Below are positions 1,756 to 58,415 of a stretch of 64,000 bases of DNA, piece after piece; position 1 is the stretch's first letter; each line of letters opens with the position of its first letter. Below the pieces are notes generated by a model. It was not told the DNA's origin and did no database searches. It saw only the letters and a list, made by a program, of their open reading frames with translations. The position numbers and the translations under genes were made by a program. The stretch comes from Candidatus Uhrbacteria bacterium. Its GTDB lineage: Bacteria; Patescibacteriota; Patescibacteriia; UBA9934; GWF2-40-263. Where the stretch lies: positions 99,855-163,854 of the forward strand of contig JAPLZK010000003.1 of the NCBI GenBank assembly GCA_026395055.1, given 5' to 3'.

Positions 1756-1776
1756 AAATGCGAATGATTCGCATTT
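1756..1776. promoter_or_regulatory. candidate Zur/Fur operator
   Basis: 21-bp palindrome AAATGCGAAT-G-ATTCGCATTT, perfect 10-bp arms, about 37 bp upstream of zur start and in the zur/znuA divergent region. Confidence 0.5.
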
Positions 1777-1953
1777 AGAAAAAGTGCTTTTCGAACAAGA
1801 TACACACAACGATCGCATTTAGTCTCCCTCTTTTTCTATTTTTGATCTAAGCAGATACCCGCCGTTTCAGAACAAACGTCATCGACGTAACAACGATTCT
1901 TTTCTTTTATAAGGCTGTGGCCTTCGCCCCTTCTCGTTCACTAAAAATCTCCT

Positions 1954-4853: not shown

Positions 4854-4936
4854 GGGGCTGTTTTAGCCTGGGAATTCTCGATTGCACAGCATAGCTTGTC
4901 AGATGAAGACGAGACCGCTATACTCACCCCGGTTCA

Positions 4937-5299: not shown

Positions 5300-5325
5300 C
5301 TCACCCGAAAGGATGAGTTTTTTCT
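5298..5325 (+). terminator. weak intrinsic terminator after VOC gene
   Basis: stem AACTCA/TGAGTT with 10-nt loop followed by TTTTTTC. Confidence 0.3.
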
Positions 5326-5367
5326 TATCTTTTCTTTGAGGAAAAAACGTGTTAGCATTTCCCTAAC

Positions 5368-5700
5368 ATGAAACATCTTACACTCATGATTCTCGCCGCA
5401 ATCCTCTTTGTTGGACTTACCTATGCAGGGAAGTCGCTTTTTGGCATGGATGACGGAATGCAGATGGGGAATATTGAGTGTGTGAATCACTGTATTGATA
5501 CGTCTGTATTTCCAAGTGTTCCCTCAACAGCGCTCCCGGTTCTCTTGTTCGTTCTTGTATTTCTTGCGCGCGAGATTCTTCGCTGCGCTCAGAATGACAC
5601 AAGTGGACGTTTCAATACGGCACAATATGTCCGTCTGACCGAACCAATACGCCTTTCTCTTCGTGGGAACACATTTTCTCCTGTCATGATCCGAGATTAG
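5368..5700 (+). CDS. hypothetical small secreted/membrane protein (doubtful)
   Basis: 110-aa ORF with N-terminal signal-like and one internal hydrophobic segment; no SD; low support. Confidence 0.2.
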   Translation: MKHLTLMILAAILFVGLTYAGKSLFGMDDGMQMGNIECVNHCIDTSVFPSVPSTALPVLLFVLVFLAREILRCAQNDTSGRFNTAQYVRLTEPIRLSLRGNTFSPVMIRD

Positions 5701-5749
5701 ACCAAACATCTGATTTGTTTTAAGTCATGTATTGTTTGGTTTTTGTTTT

Positions 5750-6808
5750 ATGCAAAGTTTTACGTTTATTTCCGCTCTTTTACTTGGGTTTGTTGCAGGA
5801 AGTTCGTCCTGTCTTGCTGTCTCTGGTGGATTGTTGTTATCCATGATTGGAAAGTCACATGACAGACTAGGCGCCATGTCAAAAAGTGCACGCATGCGTT
5901 TTACGTGGTCTTTTGTGATCGGACGTATTGCGGCGTACACCATTCTTGGTGGAGTGATTGGCATCATTGGCTCCTCGTTTACCTTTTCCCCTTGGGTAAC
6001 CGGTGTGATCACCCTTCTTGCTGCGGCGTACATGATTATCGCTGGACTCGAAATGCTGCAGATGGCGCCGAACTGGTTGAAATGCGCGATTCCACGTCCG
6101 CCAAAGTGGTTGTCGAATAAAATTCTGGATAGTGATGGAAACCCAAATCCATTCGCGCCATTCTTGCTTGGTGCCGCAACATTTTTCTTGCCATGTGGAT
6201 TCACACAATCCTTACAAATTTACGCACTGACGACGGCAAGTTTTACAACAGGCGCTTTGATTCTTGGAGCGTTTGCCATTGGAACCGCGCCTGCACTTCT
6301 TGCGCTTGGATTTGCTTCTGGTGCATTGAACGGAAAAACAGGGAAGTTTGTTCTGAAAATTGCGGGTGTCTTTATTTTATATCTTGCGATGGGAAATATT
6401 CAGAATGGACTCACGCTCCTTGGGCACCCAATCTCATTTGCCTCAGCTGCGCCTTCTGCCGGATACCGTGTCACGTCCACTGGAATTGACGCAGGATCTC
6501 CAACCACAAATACCCAAGCACCCATCTTGGAACAAAATGGTGTTCAACAGTTGCGTCTCGCCATAACAGACACAGCACCTTTTTATGCTCCATCAAATCA
6601 ACTGACCGCAACCGCTGGGAAACCGGTTCATCTTGAAATTGATGGTGTTGCAGGTGGTTGCCGTAGTGTCTTTCAAATTCCAGGCGTTGGAGTTCAAATG
6701 TTATTGAATCAAGAAAAAAATGTTGTCGATTTTACTCCAACAAAACCAGGGTCTTATCCCTTTAGTTGTTCCATGGGTATGTATCGTGGAACGTTAAACG
6801 TACTCTAA
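5750..6808 (+). CDS. polytopic permease (TauE/SafE- or CcdA-like fold, family uncertain) with C-terminal cupredoxin-like domain
   Basis: ORF 5732 (TTG) trimmed to ATG 5750; N-terminal ~230 aa multi-TM with LPCGF motif; C-terminal ~110 aa beta-rich domain ending GSYPFSCSMGMYRGTLNV; immediately upstream of copA. Confidence 0.5.
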   Translation: MQSFTFISALLLGFVAGSSSCLAVSGGLLLSMIGKSHDRLGAMSKSARMRFTWSFVIGRIAAYTILGGVIGIIGSSFTFSPWVTGVITLLAAAYMIIAGLEMLQMAPNWLKCAIPRPPKWLSNKILDSDGNPNPFAPFLLGAATFFLPCGFTQSLQIYALTTASFTTGALILGAFAIGTAPALLALGFASGALNGKTGKFVLKIAGVFILYLAMGNIQNGLTLLGHPISFASAAPSAGYRVTSTGIDAGSPTTNTQAPILEQNGVQQLRLAITDTAPFYAPSNQLTATAGKPVHLEIDGVAGGCRSVFQIPGVGVQMLLNQEKNVVDFTPTKPGSYPFSCSMGMYRGTLNVL

Positions 6809-23486: not shown

Positions 23487-23763
23487 AAGATAAGGCAGCC
23501 AAAGACGCTTATGGAAACCAAAAGGTGACCAAAGGCCATGGAAGCGTTAAAAAAATTACGACCCGTTTTTCCATCAGGTCGTAATACAGACAAGAGGCCA
23601 CGAGTCATGCTCGAATGATGTCGAGCGAAATTATGTTGAAAGACTATCAGGAAAAGCCCGCTCTGTCAATGAATCGAGGTGAATCCAGAGTAATCATTGA
23701 CATTATGCGCCTTTTGACGTAGGTTCATCTCTTCATCATTGGTGGTGAAGACGTGAGGAACAT

Positions 23764-24153
23764 ATGAAAAAGGCTTGGATTGCTGGTGCGATTGTTCTCA
23801 TCACTGCGGGCGTGAGCCTGTGGAGCTATAATAAAGCGGTCGGACTCGCAGTATTTGTGGGCTCCAAGGCGGATGCCGAGGAGAATTTGGCAACGTACGC
23901 GAAGGACATGAACGTCAAAGTGGTGGGCAAGAGCTGCGCGGAGACGGATTCGGATGGAGATCACTACATTTCCTGCACGGCACGTTTTCAGGAAACCGAT
24001 GGCGGACCTGTGACGGAGCGCTATCTCGAATGTGGTTCTGGCGCATGGGGTGCGCGTACGGGCGGGTGTAAGCCCAAGCTTGGCGCTTACCCAATGATGC
24101 CTGCTCCCGCAGCGGTTGCTCCGGCACCTGTGCCGCCATCCGCGCAGAAGTAA
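23764..24153 (+). CDS. small Cys-rich exported protein, paralog A (TM-anchored), DSDGD motif
   Basis: N-terminal TM; C-x12-C-x18-C-x11-C pattern with TDSDGDHYISC; paralogous to 24592..24939. Confidence 0.5.
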   Translation: MKKAWIAGAIVLITAGVSLWSYNKAVGLAVFVGSKADAEENLATYAKDMNVKVVGKSCAETDSDGDHYISCTARFQETDGGPVTERYLECGSGAWGARTGGCKPKLGAYPMMPAPAAVAPAPVPPSAQK

Positions 24154-24156
24154 GTC

Positions 24157-24462
24157 ATGAGAAGTCTCGTCATTTTTCTTCTCGTTCTCGTAAGTTGCGG
24201 AAAACCTCGGTCTTCGAATGAAACCGCCCATTCAAATATTCACCGTTACGTTCATGGGACCCATCTGCAGATCAACATGATCAACTGTAATGAAGAAGGT
24301 CCAACGAACGATGATCATGTTTACTGTGTTGCGATGGTTCGCGATGAAATCGAAGGAAGCGAATCTGAGGTTCATCTCAAATGTGATCAGACACGCATGG
24401 TCGGATCCAAATATCGTCAACGCCACGAATCAACGGGCTGCGTTCTCAATATGCCGCCTTAG
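24157..24462 (+). CDS. small Cys-rich lipoprotein, divergent paralog B
   Basis: signal peptide with lipobox LVSC; same C-x12-C-x18-C spacing as neighbours. Confidence 0.45.
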   Translation: MRSLVIFLLVLVSCGKPRSSNETAHSNIHRYVHGTHLQINMINCNEEGPTNDDHVYCVAMVRDEIEGSESEVHLKCDQTRMVGSKYRQRHESTGCVLNMPP

Positions 24463-24471: not shown

Positions 24472-24498
24472 ATCGAGCAGATGCTCGATTTTTTGTTT
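24472..24498 (+). terminator. intrinsic terminator after paralog B
   Basis: ATCGAGCA-GA-TGCTCGAT followed by TTTTTTG. Confidence 0.5.
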
Positions 24499-24504
24499 GA
24501 TCTC

Positions 24505-24533
24505 TTGACAATTTGGGATATTTCAGGTATATT
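24505..24533 (+). promoter_or_regulatory. sigma70-like promoter (TTGACA-17-TATATT) for pilin-like gene
   Basis: consensus -35, 17-bp spacer, -10 TATATT; AGGAGG SD 5 nt before GTG start. Confidence 0.5.
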
Positions 24534-24591
24534 CCGACGTCTGAATCGTGAGCAGTTTGCGAGGAGGACGTGGTTTTTTCAGGAGGTTCCC

Positions 24592-24939
24592 GTGAAGAAA
24601 GGTTTTACGCTGATCGAACTCATGATCGTTCTTGCGATCATCTCAATCCTTGCAGTCGTGGTGGGTGGCATGTTCCGTGGCTGTTCGGCTGTTTCCGGTA
24701 GCAAGCAGGAGGCCATGGCCACCATGCGCACCTACGCGACGGAAATGGGTTGGAAGATGGTTGGTGGCACGTGTGCCGACACCGATTCCGACGGTGACGG
24801 TTACATCAGCTGTACCATCAATGTCCAGGAAGTCGAAGGTGCGCCTCCGGTCGCAAAAGCCCTTCAGTGCGCTTCCGGCGCCGCGATTTCTCGTACGGGC
24901 GGCTGTAAGCTGGCCCAAGGTGTCTATCAGCAGCAGTAG
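24592..24939 (+). CDS. type IV pilin-like (prepilin N-terminal methylation motif) Cys-rich protein, paralog C
   Basis: GTG start after AGGAGG; KKGFTLIELMIVLAIISILA class III signal; C-terminal domain TDSDGDGYISC... paralogous to 23764 gene. Confidence 0.6.
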   Translation: MKKGFTLIELMIVLAIISILAVVVGGMFRGCSAVSGSKQEAMATMRTYATEMGWKMVGGTCADTDSDGDGYISCTINVQEVEGAPPVAKALQCASGAAISRTGGCKLAQGVYQQQ

Positions 24940-37270: not shown

Positions 37271-37831
37271 ATGAACTACGCAGATATAGCGCTCATTATT
37301 ATCGTTGGAAGTTTTGTTGCGGGCGGAGTTTGGTATGGATTGTTTCGTTCCCTTGGATCCTTAGTTGGAACCATCGTTGCAGCAATTTTTACCGGGAGTG
37401 TCATTGACTTCATGACACACAAGTTCGGATTTTTATTTGGAGGAGGGGAAATCGCACGTGTGGTCATTTATTTGATCGTGTTCATGATTATCTCCCGTTT
37501 GGTCGGCTTGGTGTTCTGGATTATAAGTAAGTTACTTGGAATTGTTCTCTGGATGCCGTTTCTTAAAACCATTGATCATCTTCTTGGTGGGCTCTTTGGA
37601 TTCATTGAAGGAATCATTGTTGTGGGATTTGTTTTGCTTTACGCATCGCACATCTTCTCGCCAGAGCTCATGCACAAGTTACTCATCGATCATTCCGCGT
37701 TTGCAAAATATGTTTTGCAAACCGTAACAACACTCGAATTATTCTTGCCAGACATCATCCGAAATTTCATTTTCAAATACGCGAACGTGACAACAGACAC
37801 CATTTCAAAAGGAATTCCAAAAATGCCCTAG
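37271..37831 (+). CDS. CvpA family membrane protein
   Basis: 4 TM helices, CvpA-like pattern and size. Confidence 0.55.
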   Translation: MNYADIALIIIVGSFVAGGVWYGLFRSLGSLVGTIVAAIFTGSVIDFMTHKFGFLFGGGEIARVVIYLIVFMIISRLVGLVFWIISKLLGIVLWMPFLKTIDHLLGGLFGFIEGIIVVGFVLLYASHIFSPELMHKLLIDHSAFAKYVLQTVTTLELFLPDIIRNFIFKYANVTTDTISKGIPKMP

Positions 37832-38702: not shown

Positions 38703-38724
38703 AACTCGAGAATCTTCTCGAGTT
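38703..38724. terminator. hairpin terminator shared by tatD (+) and hypothetical gene (-)
   Basis: AACTCGAGA-ATCT-TCTCGAGTT with A6 on + side. Confidence 0.45.
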
Positions 38725-39616
38725 AGGGGCCGACGTAGTAACGGATGTAGTCGGTGGATTTTGGATCTGCGCCGTTTAGGAGGTCGTAGATGCATTTCTG
38801 AAGGAGGCTTCCGTGCGGTTTGAATTCAGGACCTGTACAACCTTCTTTCTGTTCACGCGCACGACGTTTCCATCCCTCAAAGTGTTGTTCGCCCCATTTG
38901 CGTGTATCGGGATCTTCATCATCGCACGCGGCAAAGGCTTCTTCCATTTTCTGTCGTATCATTTGATAGTATTCGTCCTTGTGGAGTCTTTGAATCCAAA
39001 TGGGAACATTCAGATTTTTGACTACAGGAGGAACATCGATCACGAGTGGCTCGAAAGGGGGAGGTATCTCAAGATCTGGTGAGGGGCCGTCTGTGTCCTT
39101 ATCCGCCATGGTGGTCTTTTTTTTGCCCCCCGTTTTTGCGGCAGCGAGCATACCTTCCAGATTGGCTGGATTCACGGCACGAATATAGGGAACACGTCCT
39201 TCGTCACGCTCAGCATCTGTTTGAGGTTTGGGTATGACCATTTCAGGAATACCTCTCTGTGCTGCCCTGAGGGCATCAATATTGATTGTTCCTCCGGCGG
39301 GTTTGGCGATTTCCATCGGAATTGGTGGAGGCTCGGCCTCGGCTTCCGGTGGTTCTTCCAGCTCTTCCATAGATTCACTCTCGGTCAAGTCCGCAAGGAG
39401 TGCTTTCTGGGCTGTATGATCGAGGCTGTCGACGTATAGTGAACGATCTTCCGCAAAGGTGCGGTATCGATTTACGGCACTTTCCGCAATACTCATGAAT
39501 TGTTGATCATCCAGAGCATCAATGTTTTGATTTGCTTGGAAAAGCTCGAGAGCCTCCTGGGTTGCAAGACTTGGGTCGTCTCCAAAGAGCTGATTATATG
39601 CTTCTGCGAGTTCCAT
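38723..39616 (-). CDS. hypothetical acidic, Pro-rich protein
   Basis: ORF to 39664 trimmed to MELAEAYNQ; EELEEPPEAEAEPPPIP tracts; no recognised domain; divergent from P1. Confidence 0.4.
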   Translation of the reverse strand: MELAEAYNQLFGDDPSLATQEALELFQANQNIDALDDQQFMSIAESAVNRYRTFAEDRSLYVDSLDHTAQKALLADLTESESMEELEEPPEAEAEPPPIPMEIAKPAGGTINIDALRAAQRGIPEMVIPKPQTDAERDEGRVPYIRAVNPANLEGMLAAAKTGGKKKTTMADKDTDGPSPDLEIPPPFEPLVIDVPPVVKNLNVPIWIQRLHKDEYYQMIRQKMEEAFAACDDEDPDTRKWGEQHFEGWKRRAREQKEGCTGPEFKPHGSLLQKCIYDLLNGADPKSTDYIRYYVGP

Positions 39617-39748
39617 GGAACCTCCTGTAGGTGTGTTTGAGAAGCTTGTGAATATAGCATGCAAAACTCATTTTGTCAACGAAAAGTGACAGGTATTTGG
39701 AAATAATCATTCTGCTCTTTATTTGTCAGGACTTTACATCAATTTTTT

Positions 39749-39852
39749 TGCTAAAATGTCTTGACATTCTTTGAAATTCTTGTTAGTTTACCTCCTCAAA
39801 GTGGCAACGGTGTCGCGGAGAGAAGAGGGTTTTTTCGAGCGAGATCTCTCGC
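39749..39852 (+). promoter_or_regulatory. AT-rich control region of P1: TGCTAAAAT extended -10, TTGACA box and 14-bp palindrome GCGAGATCTCTCGC before SD GAGG
   Basis: 250-bp AT-rich intergenic; palindrome ends ~15 bp before ATG 39868. Confidence 0.35.
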
Positions 39853-39867
39853 TTGCGAGGTTAGACG

Positions 39868-41397
39868 ATGAGTCGTTTGAGCAAATTGCTTGCGGATCTT
39901 GGCATGAACATTCCGATCGTTGATGAAACGACGGGTACGAGTTCGAATACGGGCACGGCGCTTGCCATGCCACAGAAGAACGCTGCCGCAAAGCGCGTCA
40001 TTGACGAAGGGGTCGACATGGCCTCAATAGTATACGCGGACCTCCCTCCGGAGGTGGCGCGTAGCCGCATGCGCGAACGTCTCGTCGAAGTCGGCGAAAT
40101 GGTGATCTTCCCAATCGACTTCACTGCGGGTGTTGTGGAGAAGGAAGATGGTAGCCCGGATCTGAAGATCTATGCCACCATGAACATTCCGGGCGTTGGG
40201 CACGTGGAAGTGCAGCCGCTCATCACGCTTGGCGTGAATTACATCGGTCAGACGAAGGAAGGCAAGTTCCGGACGTTGCAAACGTTCCAGTGCTTGGTCT
40301 TCCGGCCGAGGTTCGTGGATCCGAAGAAGCCGAAGGAAAATCCGTACAAGGCGTTTCCGATCAACTTCCTCAGTCCGAGTGTCCTCGACACCTGGAATTT
40401 CATTGCGACCCAGATGCCGAGCCTGAATTGGCCAACGATTGATCACATTCCGAATACTCTCCGCAAGGCGGGAACGCGGACGCTCACGTTTGCGCCACGG
40501 TGTCTGAAGACGTTGTCGTTCACGAATGACAAGCGTGTGAAGCGCAAGGGTCAGTGGGTGAATGAGCCTGTGACGGATTCGTTCCGGATCGTGGGTTACC
40601 TCTTTGGCCAGATGCTGAAGTTGCACGCGTTGTCGGATGAACCGGTCACTCCCGCGCTCGACGCAGATGGAAAGCAGCGTGAGAACAAGGAAGGCTATCA
40701 GCTGGTCGAGCTCGATCGGCGGGAATACGTCTGGAGCGTGAAGCTTGGCGAAGGTTCGCTCGAGTTGTCGCTCATTGATCTCGCGGAGAACTACAAGGGT
40801 GACGCGCGCGTTCCGATCGTGGAAGTGCGCAATGAAATGGATCCGTTCGCGGTCCTTGGCACGACGCCGCTCAAGATGGACATCAATACGGTTGGTGATC
40901 TCACGCGTGCGTGGGTCATGCGTGTGTACGATGAAACGAATCCGCTGTACGTGTATGCACGTGACGCGGGTCTCGTGAACATTCAGGACTCGCAGGAGAC
41001 CATGCGGCCGATCATCGAAGATCTCGGCCGTACGGCTGTGGAAAAGGGAATTGAGGATATGAAGGCGACCTACGCCGAAGTTACCTCGCGTCTCTCGACC
41101 GCATCGGACAAGCCGAGTATTGAGGAAGTGTTGAATGGGCGCCTGCTCAAGGCGATCCTGTTTCGCATGAACAAGGACGATGCTGCGGCTACGTGGATTG
41201 ATTCCAAGATCGAAGGCAGCTTTGATCCGAAGAGTCCGTTCCACATGGCAGTACGTCGGTACGTGATCGAGATGATCGCGACGAAAGCGAATTACAAGGA
41301 TCCGGAGCCGAAGAAGCCCGAAGCTCCGAAACCTCCTGTGGTCGAAGCGGCAGTTCTGCCTCCTACGACCGAGAACGCGGCGACTCCGCCTGCGTAA
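39868..41397 (+). CDS. large conserved hypothetical protein P1 (paralog of 41519..43300)
   Basis: 509 aa; shared blocks with P2 (QCLVF...KAFP, NPLY, QTM..I.EDL, FDPKSP); Pro-rich C-terminal tail; no enzymatic motif recognised. Confidence 0.55.
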   Translation: MSRLSKLLADLGMNIPIVDETTGTSSNTGTALAMPQKNAAAKRVIDEGVDMASIVYADLPPEVARSRMRERLVEVGEMVIFPIDFTAGVVEKEDGSPDLKIYATMNIPGVGHVEVQPLITLGVNYIGQTKEGKFRTLQTFQCLVFRPRFVDPKKPKENPYKAFPINFLSPSVLDTWNFIATQMPSLNWPTIDHIPNTLRKAGTRTLTFAPRCLKTLSFTNDKRVKRKGQWVNEPVTDSFRIVGYLFGQMLKLHALSDEPVTPALDADGKQRENKEGYQLVELDRREYVWSVKLGEGSLELSLIDLAENYKGDARVPIVEVRNEMDPFAVLGTTPLKMDINTVGDLTRAWVMRVYDETNPLYVYARDAGLVNIQDSQETMRPIIEDLGRTAVEKGIEDMKATYAEVTSRLSTASDKPSIEEVLNGRLLKAILFRMNKDDAAATWIDSKIEGSFDPKSPFHMAVRRYVIEMIATKANYKDPEPKKPEAPKPPVVEAAVLPPTTENAATPPA

Positions 41398-41408
41398 GCA
41401 CATCTCTT

Positions 41409-41434
41409 ACTGATCCTAACCAGGTCAGTTTTTT
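41409..41434 (+). terminator. intrinsic terminator of P1
   Basis: CTGATCCT..AGGTCAG hairpin followed by TTTTTTGTTTTG. Confidence 0.45.
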
Positions 41435-41486
41435 GTTTTGTTCGACAACATCTTTTGAAGCCTCGGTGAAGAAGGATACAAACAAA

Positions 41487-41511
41487 GAAAAAACCGATCA
41501 AGTTGATCGGT
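41487..41511 (-). terminator. intrinsic terminator of P2 (minus strand)
   Basis: ACCGATCA-AGT-TGATCGGT preceded by A6 on + side. Confidence 0.45.
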
Positions 41512-41518
41512 TCGAGCG

Positions 41519-43300
41519 TTATTGTTTGTCTGTCCTGTATGCAACTTTGTATTCACCTCTATTCAGGATGGATCCGTGGTTCACACGCATGGGTGGGCCC
41601 GGATCATCCTCTCCTGCGGGTGGAATGACGCCATTCATTCCTGTCGGATCCCAAACGGTTGGATCAACGAATGGCAGTTCTTCATCGACGATGAGATCGA
41701 CGGTCGTCGCTTCTGCTTCGATGAACTCTTCGAGGTCATCGTCGCCCAAAATGATTTCTTCGTCGGCTGTATGCGGAACCGCTGTAGGTTTTGGCATTGG
41801 GACAAATGCATCGCTTGCGCGAAACGCCGGAGAACTTGATTCGCGATGACTCACGGGAAGTGAGGAGATCGGAATCTGTTTTGGAACGGGGGTGAGCTCT
41901 GGAATCAGGATGCTGACTTGAGAGATTTCTGGAATGGGTGGCGGTGTTACTCGTCCATACGAATTGATGAGCCATGAACGCAAGTGCATGAGCAGCGGAC
42001 TTTTTGGATCAAAGGGCATGTCGAGGACACGACTGATCCAAAGAGACGCAGCGTCTTCTGGTTGATTCATGCGCAGTGCGGCAACACGAATGTCTCTTCC
42101 GCCGAGCATGGCTTCTGCTGTTGGCTTATTTGGCGCAATCGTGAGCATGCGAATCATTTGAACAGAGGCTGCGGAGATTTGCAGTTTGATCTGTTTGATC
42201 GCGTCGAGCATCAGATCTTCAAGGATGGCATGCATGGTCTGCTGCGGATCACTCGGAAAGATCAGTTTCATTTCGATACCCGCAAGATACAACGGGTTTC
42301 GATGATCGAACGCTCGATTGAGATAGCCTCGCGCCGTTTGATCGATCGTTTTCCAATCAACCTTGAGCGGCGAGGTGTTGAGAACGGCGTATGGGTTGAT
42401 TGCGTCATGTACATCAAGAACGGCAAGACGCTGGTCTATTTTGACTTTGCCCTCTGGACCAAGCCAAAACACTTCAAGTGGACCTTCATTCAGTTTCACG
42501 CGGAAGATGTGTTTTGAAACGAATCGTTTTTCTCCATCCACGTCATCCGGTTCCGGAATTTGTGATTTGGAAGAGAGAAACAGCTTTTGTCCAAAGCGTG
42601 TTCCAATCAAGAGGCGTTTGCGAGATCCTCGTTCACGCTTGAACAATGGATCAAACGTTGGAATGAATTCAACAACGCGAACGCCGGGGCGCATCAAATT
42701 GTTGCGGATCACTTCAATGAGTGGCCAAAGCTCGTCTTTGTTTTTCGTAACGGCATTGCGACGTTTTGCAACGTCGTTCCAAACGTGAATTGTGCTTGGA
42801 TCCGCAAGTCCGAGCGGGAACGCTTTGAATGGCCCGGTCTTTGTGTTCGATTTGAAGACAAGACACTGGATGGAACCACCGCTTGTGTATTTCCCATTTT
42901 CGATCGCAATCAAATATTCGGGTCCGACATAGATGAGCGGAACGATTTCTTGTTCCGCGTCATAGCCGGGAAGGGTCGCTTTCGCGAATACGTGAACGTC
43001 CCCATTCGGTTGTTCACGACCTTCGAAGATGAGATTGGCAATATGTGCTCGACCATTCAATTCTCGCACAAGGCGTGCGCGCATGTCTGATCGTGCAGCT
43101 TCACGATTCGGATTTGGATCCACGAGTGCGGCGCGATTGATCGCGTCTGCGATCAATCGATTCGCTCCCGGAACACTGTCTGGGATCGCGGGAAGGTAAG
43201 CGCTTTTTCGGCCAGACAATTCTGGACTGATTTCCTGCACGTGCGGGATCGAAAGCCCGAGTTCGAGCAGGGTGACAGCGCTCAGCTGCGTCTCATCCAT
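41519..43300 (-). CDS. large conserved hypothetical protein P2 (paralog of P1) with long Pro/acidic C-terminal tail
   Basis: 593 aa; ~25% identity to P1 over ~450 aa; convergent orientation. Confidence 0.55.
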   Translation of the reverse strand: MDETQLSAVTLLELGLSIPHVQEISPELSGRKSAYLPAIPDSVPGANRLIADAINRAALVDPNPNREAARSDMRARLVRELNGRAHIANLIFEGREQPNGDVHVFAKATLPGYDAEQEIVPLIYVGPEYLIAIENGKYTSGGSIQCLVFKSNTKTGPFKAFPLGLADPSTIHVWNDVAKRRNAVTKNKDELWPLIEVIRNNLMRPGVRVVEFIPTFDPLFKRERGSRKRLLIGTRFGQKLFLSSKSQIPEPDDVDGEKRFVSKHIFRVKLNEGPLEVFWLGPEGKVKIDQRLAVLDVHDAINPYAVLNTSPLKVDWKTIDQTARGYLNRAFDHRNPLYLAGIEMKLIFPSDPQQTMHAILEDLMLDAIKQIKLQISAASVQMIRMLTIAPNKPTAEAMLGGRDIRVAALRMNQPEDAASLWISRVLDMPFDPKSPLLMHLRSWLINSYGRVTPPPIPEISQVSILIPELTPVPKQIPISSLPVSHRESSSPAFRASDAFVPMPKPTAVPHTADEEIILGDDDLEEFIEAEATTVDLIVDEELPFVDPTVWDPTGMNGVIPPAGEDDPGPPMRVNHGSILNRGEYKVAYRTDKQ

Positions 43301-43396
43301 CCGTTCCTCCTGTCTGATCTTTGGGTCTTCAATACACAGCGCATTGAAGGACAGAGGTTATCATACGATAATTCGGGGGTCAATTCAAAAAAACGA

Positions 43397-51857: not shown

Positions 51858-53840
51858 ATGAATCTTTCGTTTTTTGTTGTGCTGTCTTTGTCTGGAGTAT
51901 TCCTTTCTGCACTTATTTCATTTATCAGCGCAAAAGGGCAGGGGCACCGCGCAGTCGTGACGCTCCTCGCGTTGTCTACGGGACTTGGAGCCTTTTCAAG
52001 TGCGGCTTTTTTGTTGAGTGGTCAATCTCAACTCACAATCACTCAATCTGCGTGGCTTTTTGGAACACCATTCGTTTTATCTGTTCTCTCAGCACTATTC
52101 TTTTTTCTTTTAAACACAGTCGCTTGTCTCGCATCTGTTTACGCCATGAAGTATGTGGAACAGTATACGGAAGTCTATAACGTTCGCGTTCTCGATGGTC
52201 TCATGGCTATTTTCGTGCTCGGCATGCAAGGCGTCCTTCTTGCGGGCACACCGTTTGGATTTCTTGTGTTCTGGGAAATCATGTCGCTGTCATCCTTCTT
52301 TCTTGTCATGGCAGACAAAGAAGCGGCATCCGTTCGCGCAGCGCTCTTTTATCTCATCATGACACATCTTGGGGCAGGAGCGATCCTTGCTGGATTTATG
52401 ATCCTCTCGAACGGATCATTACTTGAATCATTCACGCGCCTCGCCATTCTCGCGCAACATCTTCCACCTTCAACACTGTTTGGTGTATTTCTTTTATTTC
52501 TCTTTGGCTTTGGCTCAAAGGCGGGACTTGTTCCGTTTCATGTCTGGCTTCCAGAAGCTCACCCACAAGCTCCATCGCACATTTCCGCACTCATGTCTGG
52601 AGTGATGTTAAAAATGGCGCTTTACGGTTTTTTGGTAATGACCTTCACTGTCCTTCCAATCGGAAGCTCGACCGCAGCCCTTATTGTGATTGCGCTTGGA
52701 CTTCTCTCGGCTGTTTACGGAGTGATTTACGCCGTGATTGAACGTGATGTGAAGCGTGTCCTTGCGTTTAGTAGTATTGAAAACATGGGAATTATTTTCA
52801 CCATGCTTGGTGTTGCCATGCTCACACAATCACAAGGAATGTCTGCATTCTCACACGTTGCCCTCGGCGCAGCGTTGTTGTTTGCCATTGCACACGCCTT
52901 TTTTAAGTCCGGATTGTTTATGGGGGCTGGAGTCATGGTTCATGCCGCACATTCGAGATCGCTCGAAGTGATGGGGGGATTATCAAAGCGTATGCCAGCA
53001 TTTTCTGGCGCAATGCTCATCCTTGCGCTTGCAGCCGCAGCACTTCCTCCATTCTCCGCATTTATGGCGGAATGGACGTTTGTGCAAAATCTCGTTGCAA
53101 ATTTGTCGACCATGTCGCCATTTATTCAGGGTGTTCTTGTCTTGGTTCTTGTGACCATGGCACTTGTTGGGGGTCTCGCGTTATTCGCCATGATCAAGTT
53201 GTTCGGGATCGGATTCCTTGCTGAGCCTCGTTCAGAACATGTTGCACACGCTAAAGCTCCTGGAAAACTCATCGCAATTCCAATTTATCTTCTTGCAGCC
53301 TGTTCCGTTCTGGTCGGACTTCTTGCACCAGCGATTTTAAGAACGATCGGATACGGGGATCTCACGGTTAATTACGACTTGCACACAAACATAGTTCTTG
53401 GAGGAGGATCCATGAATCCAGGTAAACTCCTCGCGCTTCTTGTCGCAACGTTCTTCCTCGTTCTTCTTTTACGTCGTGTGCTCTCGAACGTTAAGCACGA
53501 ACGTGAATATCACACGTGGGACTGCGGACAGCCAATCACTCCAGGAATGGAATTCACCGCAACAGCTTTCTCCGCATCGATTCGATTCTTCTTCCGTGTG
53601 ATTACACGCACAAAAAAGAATGTGATTACAACTCCGATCATTGCAAGTAATCCATGGATTGCAAGCCGAACATTCTCTCTCGAGCTTCGACAAATTTGGT
53701 ACGACGATCTTTACGTGCCAATCCAAAACGCGTGTCTCTGGACGTCTACCCAAGTTCGTAAACTCCAAAACGGTGTCATTCAATTCTATATCGCCCTTAT
53801 CTTCATTGCCCTCGTAGTAACGCTCGCGATCGCCCTATGA
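51858..53840 (+). CDS. NuoL/MrpA/HyfB-like antiporter-type membrane subunit
   Basis: 660 aa, ~16 TM, conserved proton-pumping-subunit core. Confidence 0.75.
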   Translation: MNLSFFVVLSLSGVFLSALISFISAKGQGHRAVVTLLALSTGLGAFSSAAFLLSGQSQLTITQSAWLFGTPFVLSVLSALFFFLLNTVACLASVYAMKYVEQYTEVYNVRVLDGLMAIFVLGMQGVLLAGTPFGFLVFWEIMSLSSFFLVMADKEAASVRAALFYLIMTHLGAGAILAGFMILSNGSLLESFTRLAILAQHLPPSTLFGVFLLFLFGFGSKAGLVPFHVWLPEAHPQAPSHISALMSGVMLKMALYGFLVMTFTVLPIGSSTAALIVIALGLLSAVYGVIYAVIERDVKRVLAFSSIENMGIIFTMLGVAMLTQSQGMSAFSHVALGAALLFAIAHAFFKSGLFMGAGVMVHAAHSRSLEVMGGLSKRMPAFSGAMLILALAAAALPPFSAFMAEWTFVQNLVANLSTMSPFIQGVLVLVLVTMALVGGLALFAMIKLFGIGFLAEPRSEHVAHAKAPGKLIAIPIYLLAACSVLVGLLAPAILRTIGYGDLTVNYDLHTNIVLGGGSMNPGKLLALLVATFFLVLLLRRVLSNVKHEREYHTWDCGQPITPGMEFTATAFSASIRFFFRVITRTKKNVITTPIIASNPWIASRTFSLELRQIWYDDLYVPIQNACLWTSTQVRKLQNGVIQFYIALIFIALVVTLAIAL

Positions 53841-54772
53841 ATTCCTTTCTCCTAACTCTCGTCCAATTCATCGCTGTCATTCTCGTCGCACCATTCGTGA
53901 CGGGGCTGGTTCGCATGTGCAAGGCGCGATTCCAAGGCCGACACGGTGCTTCACCATTTTTGCCGTACATCACGTATGCAACACTTCTCAAGAAACAAAT
54001 GGTTATTTCGAAAAGCACCTCTTGGGTTTTTCGTTTGGTTCCATTTGTTGTTCTTGCGACGACGTTGTTTCTTGTTTGCGTTTTACCACTTCTTGTTTTC
54101 GGCGGAGCCTTTGTATCACTCGGTCACTTCATGATTGTTGCCGGTGTTCTCGCACTCGGTGCGGCATTTCTTGTTATGGGTGGACTTGAAAGTGCAAGTG
54201 CATTCGGAGGAATGGGCGCATCTCGTGAAATGACGTTAGCGTCCCTCGTCGAGCCAGCCATGATCGCAACATTCGCAACATTTTCCATCGTCACCGGCGC
54301 ATTCACCGTCGACGCGATGTTTGCAAACGCGCATATTCTCACTTCACCCGCATTGATTCCAGCAATCGCTGCGCTTATCATGGTCGCGCTTGCGGAGAAT
54401 GCGCGTTATCCGGTCGACAACCCAGCAACACACCTTGAACTTACAATGGTTCACGAGGCGATGGTTCTTGAATACTCTGGACCTTATCTTGCGATGCTTG
54501 AATACGCATCCGCAGTGAAACTCACCATTTTTTCTTTGCTTGTTGCAAACATCTTGTTTCCCATGACTCTTGCGGTTGATGCAACTCTTGTTGCGATCTT
54601 GATTACGATTGCGTACATGATCGTGAAAGTCATCGTTGTTTCATTCTTGCTCGCGCTGCTTGAATCATTGATTGCCAAAATGCGTTTTTATAGAATGCAA
54701 GAATACATGACCATTGCGTTCTTCTTTGCGCTTGCTGGCCTTGTCTTTGCTCTCATCCACATCACCCTATGA
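53837..54772 (+). CDS. NuoH/HycD/HyfC-like membrane subunit
   Basis: GLVRMCKARFQGRHGASPFLPY and AENARYPVDNPATHLELTMVHEA correspond to NuoH conserved loops. Confidence 0.65.
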   Translation: MNSFLLTLVQFIAVILVAPFVTGLVRMCKARFQGRHGASPFLPYITYATLLKKQMVISKSTSWVFRLVPFVVLATTLFLVCVLPLLVFGGAFVSLGHFMIVAGVLALGAAFLVMGGLESASAFGGMGASREMTLASLVEPAMIATFATFSIVTGAFTVDAMFANAHILTSPALIPAIAALIMVALAENARYPVDNPATHLELTMVHEAMVLEYSGPYLAMLEYASAVKLTIFSLLVANILFPMTLAVDATLVAILITIAYMIVKVIVVSFLLALLESLIAKMRFYRMQEYMTIAFFFALAGLVFALIHITL

Positions 54773-55398
54773 TCTCACTTTCTCTTTGGAATAATATCTT
54801 CATGGGCGGAACGCTTTTGTTTGCGATCGTCATGATGGGAATGCCACGGCTCCCAGCGATGCTTCGCTTCTTCGCGTTGTCCTCACTTTGTCTCGCGGGA
54901 CTCATTGTCACGTCATCTCTCATGAAAGGGGATGAACAGCCGTACGCAATCGCGATCATCAATATTGTGTTCAAGGTAATCCTTGCTCCAAGCATTTTGT
55001 TTTTTGCTGCACGCAAGGTTCGCGCATCCATGGCGCTCAAGTTTTATTTGCGTCCAACCGCAACCTACTTCGCTGCGCTCCTCGTGTTGCTCATCTCTGT
55101 ATTCGTTTCGTTGCGCATGCCGGGCGTTCCATATCTTTCGATCGCCCTTGTTCTTCTTGGGCTCGTATTCATGATGGTTCGAAAAGATTTGTACTCACAA
55201 ATCATTGGATTCATGACCATGGAAAATGGAATTGCCGCTTACGGTGTACTCATGATTGGCGGTTTTCCCTTCATGATTGAAACAGGAATCTTGTTCGTTG
55301 TGATCACCGGAGCAATCTTGATGGCAATCTTAAGTCGTCATGTGCAAGAGCTCTACGCAACGGGCGACACGGAATCCTTAACCGAGCTCACCGAATAA
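54769..55398 (+). CDS. HyfE/NuoK-like small membrane subunit
   Basis: 209 aa, 6 TM, C-terminal MENGIAAYG...ETGI NuoK-like segment. Confidence 0.5.
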   Translation: MISLSLWNNIFMGGTLLFAIVMMGMPRLPAMLRFFALSSLCLAGLIVTSSLMKGDEQPYAIAIINIVFKVILAPSILFFAARKVRASMALKFYLRPTATYFAALLVLLISVFVSLRMPGVPYLSIALVLLGLVFMMVRKDLYSQIIGFMTMENGIAAYGVLMIGGFPFMIETGILFVVITGAILMAILSRHVQELYATGDTESLTELTE

Positions 55399-55399
55399 T

Positions 55400-56857
55400 A
55401 TGCCAACTATTTTCATCCTATTTCTTTTTGCAGCCGCAAGCGCATACATTGCTCGAACGGAAAAACAGATTCGTGTAAGCGCACTCGTGTTTGCGATTCT
55501 TGGTGGTGGTTCAAGTCTTTACCTCGCAGTCATGAGACTTCTTGTAAGTCCATACACACCCGTCTCAGGTTGGTTTCGTGCGGACATGTACACCTGGTTC
55601 ATGATTGCGCTTGTTTCATTTGTGTATATCACTGCAACGATTGCGAGCGTTCGCTATACAGGCGAGGAATCTCGCGAAGGATTGCTTACGATCGAGAAAC
55701 TCCGTGTCTACTTTTTCTCCATTCCACTCTTTATCCTTGCCATGCTTGTTTCTGTTCTCGCAAACCACCTTGGTTTGCTTTGGATTGGACTTGAAGGCAC
55801 AACTCTTACGACAACCTTGCTCGTTGCGCTGTATCGTAAGGATGCATCCATTGAGGCGGCTTGGAAGTTCATCATGCTCTGCTCCATTGGTATCGGACTT
55901 GGAATGATTGGAATGCTCATGTTTGTGCACGCCGGAGTTGTCGCTGGACTCAACGTGTTTGATGCGTTCTCATACTCAACGCTTCGAACGAGTGCACATC
56001 TTCTTGACCCAGCATCGATGAAGCTCGCTTTCGTCTTTCTTCTCGTTGGAATTGGAACCAAAGTTGGTTTTGTCCCAATGCACACATGGCTTCCGGATGC
56101 TCACAGTAAAACTCCCTCGCCAATTAGCGCACTTCTTTCAGGGGTACTCTTGAACGTTGCGTTCTTTGTCTTGCTACGTTGCAAAGTTCTCACCGATCTT
56201 TCGATCGGAAGTTCTGCATGGTCTGATCACCTTATGATCGGCTTTGGCGTGCTCTCCGTTGTTGTTGCCGCATTTTTCTTACTCCAACAACGCAACTACA
56301 AGCGCATGCTTGCGTATTCGAGTGTTGAACACATGGGACTCATGGGCTTTGCGTCTGGACTCGGTCCTGTTGGAATGCTGGCACTTACGATCCATGCTGT
56401 CTTTCACACCCTTACAAAATCCGCATTGTTCTTCACATCGGGTGAAATTTTGCTTTCTCAAAAAACAACAAAGATTGCCGGAATCAAAAATTTGATGAAG
56501 AAAACTCCGATCACGGCAACGTTGTTCCTCCTCGGCATTCTTGCGATCATCGCCGTCCCACCATCCGGACTCTTTACGAGTGAGTTCATGATTGTCGGTG
56601 CTGGACTCCAATCCGCTCGCGGGCTCACACTCGTCCTGCTTCTCGCTCTCACCATGATTGCGTTTAGTATGTTGAAGAGTACGACGTCCATGCTTTACAC
56701 AGCAGATGATGGAGTCGTCGAACATACACATAAAGAAAAATGGACGCTCACACACGCGGTCGTCATCGTTCAGTTGATTCTGATCGTTGTGCTCGGACTT
56801 TTCATCACCACCGCGCCAGTCCTCGACTTTTTCAAGTCAATTTCACAATCGATCTAA
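55400..56857 (+). CDS. NuoN/NuoM/HyfF-like antiporter-type membrane subunit
   Basis: 485 aa, ~14 TM, conserved core of complex I antiporter subunits. Confidence 0.7.
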   Translation: MPTIFILFLFAAASAYIARTEKQIRVSALVFAILGGGSSLYLAVMRLLVSPYTPVSGWFRADMYTWFMIALVSFVYITATIASVRYTGEESREGLLTIEKLRVYFFSIPLFILAMLVSVLANHLGLLWIGLEGTTLTTTLLVALYRKDASIEAAWKFIMLCSIGIGLGMIGMLMFVHAGVVAGLNVFDAFSYSTLRTSAHLLDPASMKLAFVFLLVGIGTKVGFVPMHTWLPDAHSKTPSPISALLSGVLLNVAFFVLLRCKVLTDLSIGSSAWSDHLMIGFGVLSVVVAAFFLLQQRNYKRMLAYSSVEHMGLMGFASGLGPVGMLALTIHAVFHTLTKSALFFTSGEILLSQKTTKIAGIKNLMKKTPITATLFLLGILAIIAVPPSGLFTSEFMIVGAGLQSARGLTLVLLLALTMIAFSMLKSTTSMLYTADDGVVEHTHKEKWTLTHAVVIVQLILIVVLGLFITTAPVLDFFKSISQSI

Positions 56858-56858
56858 T

Positions 56859-58415
56859 ATGAACGCACAAGAAATTCTTCACACTATCAAATTGTCCGGC
56901 CACACCCATGGCTCTCTTGTGACGCTTGAGTCTGTTTCACCGGAATGGTTCACCCCGTTGTGCAATCGATTGTCCGCTGAGTTCAAACTTCCGCTTTCTT
57001 TGTTGTATGCAACAGATGATCGCAAAGAGGGAAAGGGGTTCGGTATTCATGTGTTGTTTGCGCTTGATGCGTCACACGAGTGGCTGCTTGTTGAGACAAC
57101 ATTGTCCGAAGAGAACCCAAGTTATGAATCTCTGACAAAAACAATCATGGAAGCGCATTGGTATGAGCGTTATGCCATGGATATGTTTGGCATTAAGGCA
57201 GAAGGTCATCCAGATCCACGTCGTTTGGTTCATCATGAGAACGTTCCGGCAAACACACATCCACTTCGTAAAGATTTTGCGTGGAATACAAAGATGGAGC
57301 ATGCAAATGAACCTTATCCAATGCATCACATTGAAGGCGAAGGAATCTTTGAGATTCCGGTCGGTCCAATTCACGCAGGTGTGATTGAGCCCGGACATTT
57401 TCGCTTTAACGTTGCGGGTGAACGTATTATTACCCTCGAAGGAAAGTTGTTCTTCACACACAAGGGTGTTGAGAAACTCCTTGAAGGAAAGACAGTTGCA
57501 CAAGCACTTCCATTCATTGAACGTATCTCAGGCGACATGTCTGCGTCACACACACTTGCATTTGCTCAAGCGATCGAGCAGATCTCAAGCGTGACGGTTC
57601 CAAAGCGTGCGCAAGAACTGCGTGTACTGATTACAGAACTTGAACGCATTACAATGCATACATTCGACATTGGAAACATGGCGGGAAACGGAACCGGATT
57701 TACGGTTGAAGCAGCTCATGGATTCCGTGTGAAAGAAAAAATCATGCGATTGTCTGAACGTGTGTTCGGAAATCGTTTTTGGCGCGGATTCGTTGTGCCG
57801 GGCGGAGTCTCGAAGACGTTGTCACAAGAAGAACTTCTCGATATTGTAAAAACAACAAAGGAAGTTGTTCAAGAGATGGAAGATCTCTTTCAGCTTGGTC
57901 GACACTCAGATGGACTTCGCGAGCGTCTCGAGACAACAGGTGTCCTCGCAAAAGAAGTCGCCGTAGCATTTGGTGCGCTTGGACTTCCAGCTCGTGGATC
58001 TGGAGTGGATCGTGACGTTCGTCGTGATCATCCTTATGCAGCGTATGCCGAGATGCAACCGGAAGTATTCACCTTTGAGAAAGGCGATGTCTATGCACGT
58101 TGGAAACTGCGCGCACTTGAGATGGTCGAATCAATGAAGCTCATCGAAAAGATTTGTGCCTCAAAGAACGACGGCTCTGTGCGTGTCGACGTACACGTAA
58201 AAGACGGCATGGCGATCGGTGCGGTCGAATCATGGCGTGGTGAGCTATTGAACGTGGTCTACGTCAGGAATGGTGTGATTGCACGCTGCGTTCCACGTGA
58301 TCCATCCTTCTGCAACTGGGCGCTCTTTGGAGCGATTGGCCCTGGAAACATCATTCCGGACTTTCCCTTGTGTAACAAATCATTGAACTTAAGTTATTCC
58401 GGAACCGATTTGTAA
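56859..58415 (+). CDS. fused NuoC-NuoD / HycE-like large subunit lacking NiFe-ligand cysteines
   Basis: ORF 56787 trimmed to MNAQEIL; NuoC-like WYERYAMDMFGI..GHPD; GPIHAGVIEPGHFRF; L1 motif RxCGxCxxxH replaced by RISGDMSASH; C-terminal DPCxxC replaced by DPSFCN. Confidence 0.8.
   Translation: MNAQEILHTIKLSGHTHGSLVTLESVSPEWFTPLCNRLSAEFKLPLSLLYATDDRKEGKGFGIHVLFALDASHEWLLVETTLSEENPSYESLTKTIMEAHWYERYAMDMFGIKAEGHPDPRRLVHHENVPANTHPLRKDFAWNTKMEHANEPYPMHHIEGEGIFEIPVGPIHAGVIEPGHFRFNVAGERIITLEGKLFFTHKGVEKLLEGKTVAQALPFIERISGDMSASHTLAFAQAIEQISSVTVPKRAQELRVLITELERITMHTFDIGNMAGNGTGFTVEAAHGFRVKEKIMRLSERVFGNRFWRGFVVPGGVSKTLSQEELLDIVKTTKEVVQEMEDLFQLGRHSDGLRERLETTGVLAKEVAVAFGALGLPARGSGVDRDVRRDHPYAAYAEMQPEVFTFEKGDVYARWKLRALEMVESMKLIEKICASKNDGSVRVDVHVKDGMAIGAVESWRGELLNVVYVRNGVIARCVPRDPSFCNWALFGAIGPGNIIPDFPLCNKSLNLSYSGTDL

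Follow-up and report, generated by a model that had tools for sequence, protein, structure and literature searches.

A hypervariable three-gene cassette at a fixed chromosomal site in Candidatus Uhrbacteria

The Locus and Its Genes

A stretch of 64,000 nucleotides from the metagenome-assembled genome of a Candidatus Uhrbacteria bacterium, a tiny inhabitant of groundwater (GenBank assembly GCA_026395055.1, contig JAPLZK010000003.1, positions 99,855 to 163,854), referred to below as the window, carries three adjacent genes for hypothetical proteins, here called P1, P2 and P3. P1 and P2 are convergent paralogues, and P3, which encodes an acidic protein, is transcribed divergently from P1. An earlier note, made from the letters of the window alone, had suggested that these genes could be an uncharacterised structural, cytoskeletal or phage/defence-derived system. 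As set out below, the three genes form a cassette that is hypervariable as a whole, with sharp edges; this property and the codon bias of P1 are points that the earlier note had missed. The features of the locus, in window coordinates, are listed here (genes from a scan of open reading frames, ORFs; protein lengths in amino acids, aa):

38703..38724, minus strand: terminator-like hairpin 3' of P3
38723..39616, minus strand: P3, acidic partner protein of 297 aa (NCBI product NTX72_03395, 297 aa)
38739..43320, no strand: whole hypervariable cassette P3 + P1 + P2, from DNA comparison with the related locus L012
39651..39679, minus strand: P3 promoter TTGACA-17-TATATT, 11 of 12 consensus matches and a TG extension; -35 box invariant in seven aligned loci
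39674..39691, no strand: inverted repeat TGTCA-N8-TGACA, overlapping the -35 box of P3 (read from the sequence)
39761..39789, plus strand: P1 promoter TTGACA-17-TAGTTT; CTTGACA and the -10 TA...T are invariant columns in seven loci
39801..39854, plus strand: 5' untranslated region (5'UTR) of P1 with two hairpins, 39801-39816 and 39837-39854
39868..41397, plus strand: P1, 509 aa (NCBI product NTX72_03400, 'hypothetical protein')
40024..41403, minus strand: antisense ORF inside P1, 459 aa; not a gene
41409..41439, plus strand: intrinsic terminator-like hairpin of P1 (41409-41429) plus T-run
41491..41513, minus strand: intrinsic terminator-like hairpin of P2, 10-bp stem
41519..43300, minus strand: P2, 593 aa, paralogue of P1
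43360..43388, minus strand: weak promoter-like site 5' of P2, 9 of 12 matches; a consensus match only

The paralogy of P1 and P2 proposed in the earlier note is borne out by BLASTP (31% identity over 472 aa, E = 8e-65), and all four motif blocks quoted there fall within the alignment. Their convergent arrangement with back-to-back terminators holds as well, the 121-bp spacer containing one hairpin on the plus strand (41409-41429) and one on the minus strand (41513-41491). For P3, the longest ORF is 38723..39664 on the minus strand (313 aa); the start at 39616 is preferred because it is preceded by an AGGAGG ribosome-binding site before the ATG and by an upstream promoter (39679-39651, overlapping the 5' end of the longer ORF), and because the NCBI product has 297 aa, all of which supports the divergent acidic gene as it was first read. 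P1, P2 and P3 are real genes under purifying selection, given that the ratios of nonsynonymous to synonymous substitution rates (dN/dS) against the orthologues in the related locus L001 are low (0.145, 0.108 and 0.251 for the three cassette genes; P3 = 0.25). The 459-aa antisense ORF, which sits in the codon-aligned antisense frame and spans nearly all of P1, was considered as a gene and rejected: it is a by-product of the avoidance of A-ending codons, open because its stops would be the sense codons TTA, CTA and TCA, which P1 almost never uses, and its frame is broken in L001.

The spacer between P3 and P1 comprises 251 bp with 39.8% GC, and within it 39617-39800 has 33.7% GC, compared to 46% for the window. 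The AT-rich region with a strong promoter-like signal that had been noted upstream of P1 thus stands; the palindrome found there (39839-39852), which lies inside the second of the two 5'UTR hairpins, has to be read differently. Most simply, it would be an RNA hairpin of the 5'UTR, because orthologues fold a hairpin at the same place with another sequence. The 5'UTRs of P1-type orthologues each have two hairpins at equivalent positions and with differing sequences, including the pairs at 1000-1079 of locus L002 and 7920-8003 of locus L005, although shuffling gives mixed z-scores for these hairpins (-0.2 to -4.2). In strongly expressed genes, hairpins in the 5'UTR often serve to stabilise the mRNA. 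Rfam matched zero RNA families in 38600-43700. Throughout the intergenic region, both -35 boxes are invariant in the seven aligned loci, with a TAnnnT -10 box at 17 nt. The inverted repeat (TGTCA-N8-9-TGACA) is kept or nearly so in 6 of the 7, and an extra, third TGTCA copy lies downstream at 39724-39728; the repeat is a possible operator for some regulator.

A Fixed Site With Replaceable Alleles

The window was compared with ten further distinct loci: L001, L002 (a short contig), L004, L005/L006 (two records of one sequence), L007, L008, L009, L010, L012 and the contig of protein P0086. The last is available as gene calls only, while the other nine were read as DNA. A divergent pair of a P3-like and a P1-like gene adjoins tatD in all ten, in agreement with the linked system that the earlier note had suspected and for which it had proposed a check of neighbourhood conservation. 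The upstream order is MetRS-CvpA-TatD wherever the contig extends far enough, and a divergent partner gene of 179-437 aa lies beside the P1-type gene in every locus. In L010 and the P0086 contig, both genes of the pair are inverted together. A convergent P2-type copy was found in 4 of the 10 distinct genomes read as DNA (window, L001, L007 and L012). The ATP-synthase operon is usually found next, downstream of the cassette; in L008 and L009 it is missing from this position, and the gene for a UvrD/PD-(D/E)XK helicase comes instead. A functional link to ATP synthase was considered and dropped: the association is positional, not functional, because these two loci keep the pair without the adjacent operon. 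The chromosomal location of the cassette is fixed, P3 is its obligatory divergent partner gene, and P2 is an optional paralogue with an inverted charge layout.

Two of the loci call for a remark on their records. L007/L011 (CAYHWG010000031.1, GCA_964360375.1) is titled 'uncultured Gammaproteobacteria bacterium', while its gene order and proteins are Uhrbacteria-like, with an AtpA 90% identical to that of the window; this metagenome-assembled genome is probably mislabelled or chimeric. L002 is a 2.7-kb contig whose name gives a coverage of 2. Its P1-type gene is broken into two ORFs, an N-terminal one of 90 aa (1077..1349) and one of 387 aa (1425..2588); this is probably a sequencing frameshift rather than a pseudogene.

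L012 (Candidatus Uhrbacteria, GCA_001791205.1) comes from a close relative and has the gene order of the window, P2-type gene included. Protein identity between the two is 97% for AtpA, 94% for MetRS, 94% for the TP-methylase, 88% for AtpB, 87% for Sod and 79% for TatD, as opposed to 49% for P2, 35% for P1 and 32% for P3. At the DNA level (blastn), the two match in colinear order across 32905-38738 and 43321-48600, with 77-83% identity; between these blocks only two short patches remain, 41957-42069 and 42272-42361, both inside P2 and coinciding with its most conserved motifs (the NPLY and FDPKSP regions). The break points of similarity lie at most ~20 bp from the ends of P3 (38723) and P2 (43300). 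The cassette is hence hypervariable as a whole, and its edges are sharp. L001, by comparison, is colinear with the window throughout, at 84%.

The similarity of P1 between genomes does not follow that of housekeeping genes. In L007, AtpA is 90%, TatD 60% and P1 56% identical to the window, as against 97%, 79% and 35% in L012; the P1-type protein of L012 is at most 35% identical to every P1 examined, while the identity of its MetRS to the window and L001 proteins is 93-94%. These comparisons show that divergent alleles are exchanged or maintained at this single site. Such incongruence between flanks and P1 cannot come about by smooth acceleration; it calls for the exchange of whole divergent alleles by recombination in the conserved flanks, or for old allele classes kept over a long time. 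Since the three genes diverge as one block, their products are probably functionally coupled, and the selection acting on the cassette would be diversifying or frequency-dependent. A replaceable, hypervariable block between near-identical flanks is typical of arms-race or partner-recognition loci. A neighbour-joining tree presents P2 as a recent duplicate; this reading is unsafe, because P2-type proteins are more conserved across the same genomes (44-49% identity across lineages) than P1-type proteins (23-35%).

Adjacent genes that diverge together between otherwise similar genomes are also found in agrBDC of S. aureus and comQXP of Bacillus, and co-evolving interacting partners behave in this way, with adjacent genes diverging as one block. 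However, those systems consist of a peptide signal, a processing enzyme and a receptor kinase, and none of these domains is present in the cassette. The likeness to hypervariable surface cassettes (slpA of C. difficile, flagellin, pilin) extends to the fixed site, the divergent alleles, the sharp boundaries and the main component, which is apparently highly expressed (in our case judged from codon usage as a proxy); the block replacement of divergent alleles at a fixed locus, which characterises these cassettes, is found for P3-P1-P2 as well. In contrast to them, the proteins of the cassette have no secretion signal, wall-binding domain or membrane anchor according to hydropathy and profiles, there is no relation in sequence or fold, and divergence extends over the whole protein instead of one exposed domain.

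A Protein Family Specific to the Lineage

When 1.84 billion cluster representatives were searched exhaustively with a profile, 70 were assigned to the P1 family at E<=1e-3, and 30 of them also at E<=1e-30. Almost all are 480-640 aa long. Those with a name, the most distant clades included, are listed as 'hypothetical protein' of Candidatus Uhrbacteria, Patescibacteria or an unclassified 'bacterium'. It was this search with hidden Markov models that revealed the family: a word-indexed homologue search gave 3-4 proteins per query and did not recover P2, probably because of the low-complexity tails, and an alignment-based search of GTDB genomes re-found the L007 contig only. As far as sequence comparison reaches, the family can firmly be called specific to the Candidatus Uhrbacteria lineage and without detectable relatives.

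The view that no well-characterised family covers these proteins is likewise upheld. Neither Pfam, NCBIfam, PHROGs nor PADLOC gave a usable match for P1, P2 or P3. More specifically, P1 and P2 match no Pfam or NCBIfam family at E<=1, the OB domain of SSB/RPA included, and the Pfam scan found no Walker or other domain in either, as had been claimed; none of the three proteins matches a PADLOC family at E<=1, and the sole line in PHROGs is P3 against a family of unknown function (E = 0.014). A Pfam scan of 58 family members and 9 P3-like proteins yielded isolated chance matches only. Sequence-profile searches of the PDB returned noise, a profile of the 58-sequence family remaining without a match, and P3 likewise. 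A literature search found no description of the P1/P2/P3 family.

Near-invariant residues of the family are Pro, Gly, Trp and Leu, together with Cys142 and Arg463, and its conserved motifs include WN, WP, NPLY, DAAxWI and FDPxSP. This pattern argues fairly strongly for structure or binding and against catalysis: the proteins are probably non-enzymatic, because the near-invariant positions are Pro, Gly, Trp, Leu and one Arg, and residues of a catalytic type are absent from them.

A hypervariable cassette could also have been left behind by a phage or mobile element, or could serve in anti-phage defence, since defence loci are commonly hypervariable, and the weak top fold matches of P2 (see below) are the HIN-200 domains of DNA sensors. 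Nonetheless, the phage- or defence-derived origin considered in the earlier note has become very improbable. Besides the lack of a PHROGs or PADLOC match, no homologue was found in 50,697 phage records (tblastn), 72,556 plasmids or IMG/VR; the models resemble no capsid, portal or tail fold, and the proteins have no nuclease, ATPase or other effector domain. The window holds no tRNA gene, and the genes called near the cassette in related loci include neither an integrase nor a transposase. Moreover, the position is constant in the ten further loci, at a fixed site among housekeeping genes, and does not show the patchy distribution of an island.

Codon Bias and Inferred Expression of P1

In P1, the G+C content at third codon positions (GC3) is 0.70, compared to 0.34-0.53 for 22 other genes of the window. 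The P1-type genes of the related loci behave alike:

L001: P1-type GC3 0.695, neighbours ~0.40
L004: P1-type GC3 0.64, neighbours 0.39
L005: P1-type GC3 0.83, neighbours 0.29
L007: P1-type GC3 0.50, neighbours 0.35
L008: P1-type GC3 0.63, neighbours 0.37
L009: P1-type GC3 0.82, neighbours 0.53
L010: P1-type GC3 0.95, neighbours 0.72
L012: P1-type GC3 0.70, neighbours 0.37-0.54

The excess has the same direction in 9 of 9 genomes (+0.15 to +0.54), over backgrounds from 0.29 to 0.72, and persists among P1 alleles that are just 25-35% identical to one another. It is mainly an avoidance of A: the frequency of A at third positions (A3) is 0.09 in P1 versus 0.27 in the background, with AAG at 0.91, CAG at 0.92, ACG at 0.68 and CCG at 0.67, while Asn, Asp and Glu codons are used at background levels. 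The same avoidance of A-ending codons (A3 0.09, CAG 0.89) is seen in a type IV pilin gene of the window with an N_methyl motif (24481..24939, plus strand). When ten syntenic genes are compared with L001, synonymous divergence is lowest in P1 (dS 0.31; the others 0.47-1.45). The codon usage of P2 and P3 is near background, with moderate GC3 enrichment of P3-like genes in L005, L009 and L010.

That the synonymous-site bias of P1 is strong and conserved is firmly established. Its probable cause is translational selection in a very highly expressed gene, and the case for this is fairly strong, because the avoidance of A-ending codons recurs in all nine genomes, is similar to that of the pilin gene and goes along with the lowest dS; the consensus promoters, the 5'UTR hairpins and the strong terminator point the same way. 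P1 has the strongest codon-bias signal of the region, and its product is thus probably among the most abundant proteins of the cell. Avoidance of ACA, the MazF site, as a cause of the bias was considered and dropped, ACA not being depleted beyond the prediction from codon usage.

Three side observations belong here. On the sense strand of P1, TAA occurs off-frame once, compared to 11.6 expected after shuffling of synonymous codons (z = -4), and TTA, TAT and TTT are depleted too; the depletion of TAA may reflect an avoidance of TA across codon boundaries. Beside the pilin gene, a 168-aa ORF without a Pfam match (23725..24231, minus strand) has a GC3-rich codon usage with C-ending codons. In L005/L006, a phosphoglucomutase gene (4573..5988) lies between CvpA and TatD, in this lineage only, and was probably acquired horizontally, because its GC3 of 0.67 exceeds the background of 0.29.

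A GC3 excess could also arise without any selection for expression, if the cassette consisted of fast-evolving, weakly constrained orphans and alleles were repeatedly taken up from GC-richer relatives. P3 and P1 indeed evolve faster than their neighbours, the inserted phosphoglucomutase neighbour in L005 is GC3-rich as well, and CvpA, outside the cassette, is also divergent (68% identity, dN/dS 0.18). But the excess goes in one direction in all nine genomes, including the GC-richest (0.95 vs 0.72), the bias is codon-specific and pilin-like, and the dS of P1 is the lowest; dN/dS values of 0.11-0.25 and confidently predicted folds indicate real constraint, and divergence sets in abruptly at the cassette edges, without fading. 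We therefore regard drifting orphans as quite improbable.

Predicted Structure and Charged Tails

AlphaFold2 models of P1 and P2 were built from the family alignment. The P1 model has a mean predicted local distance difference test score (pLDDT) of 88 and a predicted template modelling (TM) score of 0.71, with a core pLDDT above 90. A short N-terminal helix and a disordered linker are followed by a helical hairpin (36-71), a beta-rich region (80-305), a helical bundle (317-473), one helix of which is 35 residues long, and a disordered Pro-rich tail. P2 is predicted to have the same body (core pLDDT above 90), with a disordered tail from about residue 458. An internal duplication of the two beta regions was considered and dropped, the hhalign probability being 0.3%. 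Many family members begin with a short helix ending in LLxxLG(M/V/L), then a variable linker and a TALA/NLPALP motif.

The Foldseek comparison suggested in the earlier note left both models without a match at E<=1e-3, in PDB as in BFVD. The best weak match is RPA of P. abyssi (E = 0.013, probability 0.51), and TM scores are 0.14-0.34 with large root-mean-square deviations; further weak matches are uS12, uS17, HIN-200 (p205, IFI16, p204), exosome Csl4/Rrp, RNase II, NusA and eIF2alpha, and in BFVD a viral SSB and Lef-3. Nucleic-acid binders of the OB, S1 and HIN types dominate the weak matches of both independently built models. HIN-200 membership is nonetheless not supported, as these matches have E = 0.07-0.08, probability 0.15-0.18 and TM<=0.22, and no Pfam HIN profile matches. 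The capsid, actin or tubulin folds named in the earlier note as candidates did not turn up: there is no capsid or portal fold among the Foldseek matches (and no BFVD match at E<=1e-3), and no actin/HSP70 or tubulin/FtsZ fold among the best 50 listed matches of either model, nor a Pfam match to them. None of P1, P2 and P3 fits a known protein family, and in Foldseek searches of PDB and BFVD the P1 and P2 models resemble no known fold significantly.

The Pro-rich tails reported earlier are there: that of P1 has 36 aa with 28% Pro, and that of P2 is long and acidic (142 aa, net charge -16). In most P1-type proteins, the C-terminus consists of a Pro/Ala/Glu-rich spacer, a polybasic cluster of the KPKRGRKTKK type and a small-residue end (..TPAA, ..SPA). 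The charge layout is inverted in P2-type members (P2, P0004, P0009, P0011 and the L012 copy), which have a core with an isoelectric point (pI) of 9-9.5 and a tail charge of -15 to -20; for P2 of the window, the core pI is 9.5 and the acidic disordered tail comprises 142 aa. P2-type tails carry a (D/E)(D/E)L(P/D)F motif, EELPF in the window, and share the conserved end PPxxFFAKxGSxxHxGxLKDGY, of which the window version is PPMRVNHGSILNRGEYKVAY. EELPF is internal in P2, some 50 residues from the C-terminus, and the protein ends in ...GEYKVAYRTDKQ; the tail of P1 is not acidic.

P3 comprises conserved N- and C-terminal domains, and in 8 loci the homologues that occupy its divergent position can be aligned with it at both ends; its acidic/Pro-rich middle is variable, and the alignment between loci is poor there. 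The P3-like protein of L010 appears, as read by eye, to bear hydrophobic segments of a membrane type.

The earlier note was also right in finding no signal peptide: the maximum of a 19-aa Kyte-Doolittle profile is 1.55 for P1 and 1.12 for P2, below the level of signal peptides and membrane helices. Across 58 to 60 full-length aligned members, hydropathy and profiles revealed no signal peptide or membrane helix, and no LPXTG, SLH or CWB2 match was obtained.

The structural or scaffold role put forward in the earlier note is possible for the three-gene system. In a specific version of it, the proteins would be a self-assembling cytoplasmic scaffold, cytoskeleton-like or at the membrane cortex, with an amphipathic N-terminal helix and the polybasic tail as membrane anchor. 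The expression signature of P1, the non-enzymatic conservation pattern, the N-terminal helix with its conserved LLxxLG motif before a flexible linker, the polybasic C-terminus and the 35-residue helix of the C-terminal bundle would all fit. However, Pfam and Foldseek detected no similarity to actin, tubulin, bactofilin or intermediate-filament-like proteins, and cytoskeletal proteins are normally conserved, not hypervariable, so that such an assembly seems unlikely.

Proposed Function

The sole recurring matches, although weak, are to OB-fold binders (SSB, RPA, the HIN-200 proteins AIM2/IFI16/p204, and S1), with which P1 and P2, as modelled, share a beta-barrel-rich body. Most P1-type members end in a polybasic cluster, and in P2 the core is basic and the long acidic tail bears a motif of the EELPF type, reminiscent of DDDIPF, the acidic tip of SSB. 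In P2, on the other hand, the motif is internal, about 50 residues from the C-terminus, and does not form the extreme tip. Furthermore, no match is significant (E>=0.013, TM<=0.34), no Pfam profile of SSB, RPA, S1 or HIN is found, OB-fold families lack the 160-residue helical bundle and the N-terminal helical hairpin of the P1 type, and no internal duplication can be detected between the two beta regions of the P1-type body.

VirE2/VirE1 of Agrobacterium are a secreted protein that binds single-stranded DNA and its small acidic chaperone. The resemblance, meant as a lead only, lies in a large non-enzymatic, possibly nucleic-acid-binding protein beside an acidic partner, and in a positively charged unstructured C-terminus, which is present in most P1-type members and absent from P1 of the window and from the P2 type. 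There is no match in sequence or fold, though, and P3 has 297 aa and is divergently transcribed, whereas VirE1 is a co-transcribed chaperone of ~7 kDa. No comparison places the protein family in any of these groups; the locus behaves like known hypervariable loci for specificity or surface structures without belonging to any of them.

Our tentative preference, at a probability of roughly one in three, is that the cassette encodes an abundant, non-enzymatic module on which diversifying selection acts and which serves for binding or as a scaffold inside the cell. P1 would be an abundant intracellular protein that forms a heteromer with P2 in those genomes that have it. A cytoplasmic location is favoured because about 60 members lack a secretion signal, and a polyanionic ligand such as nucleic acid is suggested by the weak OB/HIN-like matches together with the charged tails. 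The modelled body of an OB/HIN-like beta-barrel and a helical bundle might bind this ligand, most likely nucleic acid, while the charged disordered tails might tune binding, being polybasic in most P1-type proteins and acidic, possibly auto-inhibitory, in P2. The acidic P3, with its variable and probably disordered centre, would act as a co-evolving partner or chaperone. An antagonist, either a phage or a host factor that targets the complex or is recognised by it, might then drive diversifying selection and the replacement of the whole cassette.

Several points weigh against this interpretation. Since no fold match is significant (best E = 0.013, probability 0.51, TM 0.14-0.34), the OB/HIN assignment may be wrong. 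P1 of the window has a tail without the polybasic cluster, which an 88%-identical orthologue retains. Hypervariability is not what one normally finds in abundant proteins that bind RNA or belong to the nucleoid; together with high expression, it is seen more typically in structures exposed at the surface. Expression itself is inferred from codon usage alone, with one 152-codon pilin gene as the reference within the window, where no ribosomal-protein or EF-Tu gene was found among the ORFs scanned; in L005, the GC3-rich neighbouring phosphoglucomutase gene, probably transferred, makes a foreign origin of the excess possible.

P1 might instead be an abundant protein that is exported or exposed at the surface, similar to S-layer proteins or adhesins, or a cargo delivered to a host cell by a route other than Sec, e.g., a type IV secretion system (T4SS). 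P3 would then be its acidic chaperone, and hypervariability would be due to pressure from phages or the host, as with the cassettes for S-layer, pilin and flagellin. The high-expression signature that P1 has in common with the pilin gene is consistent with this, and so is the replacement of a cassette with sharp edges at a fixed locus, the pattern of surface-antigen cassettes such as slpA of C. difficile. Most members have a Pro-rich spacer before a polybasic unstructured C-terminus, and such tails resemble wall-spanning linkers and the positively charged translocation signals of T4SS substrates; the apparent membrane-type segments of the L010 P3-like protein (seen by eye) would also suit an exported system. 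T4SS have been reported to be widespread in Patescibacteria, including Paceibacteria (PMC12102498). Against export, the 58 to 60 full-length members have no signal peptide, membrane helix, LPXTG, SLH or CWB2 match, P1 of the window lacks the polybasic cluster, and neither Pfam nor Foldseek gave a match to VirE2 or an S-layer protein. On balance, we consider export doubtful, but deserving of serious attention.

A bolder proposal, to which we give little credence, is that the cassette is a Uhrbacteria-wide specificity determinant: an abundant P1 of a new fold, sometimes joined by P2 and handled by P3, would be exposed or delivered by a non-Sec route at the interface with a host or phage, for example by a T4SS that recognises the basic C-terminal tail, and the allele type would set the host or phage partner. 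If this were true, the cassette would be the first candidate locus for host range or phage range in the uncultivated Uhrbacteria lineage.

Whether the product is an intracellular binding module, as we favour, or an exported one, the locus is an easily located target, between tatD and the ATP-synthase operon, for studies of the make-up of these cells, of host and phage interactions and of strain differences. The cassette is present in every Uhrbacteria-type genome recovered here, and its fixed flanks make it a convenient strain-typing marker in metagenomes. The Candidate Phyla Radiation (CPR) represents a large, mostly uncultivated share of bacterial diversity, and much of its proteome has no assigned function.

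Neighbouring Genes

The CvpA-like gene of the window (37271..37831, Colicin_V family), which is separated from the cassette by tatD, is unusually divergent: it has 68% identity to its counterpart in L001, at a dN/dS of 0.18, and the same value to that in L012, whereas its neighbours reach 93-96% against L001. With 71% identity, the MetRS proteins of L005 and L009 are closer to each other than to those of the other loci (about 52%); because this pair is set apart and TatD shows no such split, there may be two MetRS lineages within these genomes. Downstream of the complete F-type ATP-synthase operon, the window carries at 51858..58415 two genes for antiporter-like subunits of the Mrp/NuoL-M-N type and one for a fused protein resembling NuoC-NuoD or the large subunit of [NiFe]-hydrogenases, a module like that of a respiratory complex or a group-4 hydrogenase in a CPR genome.

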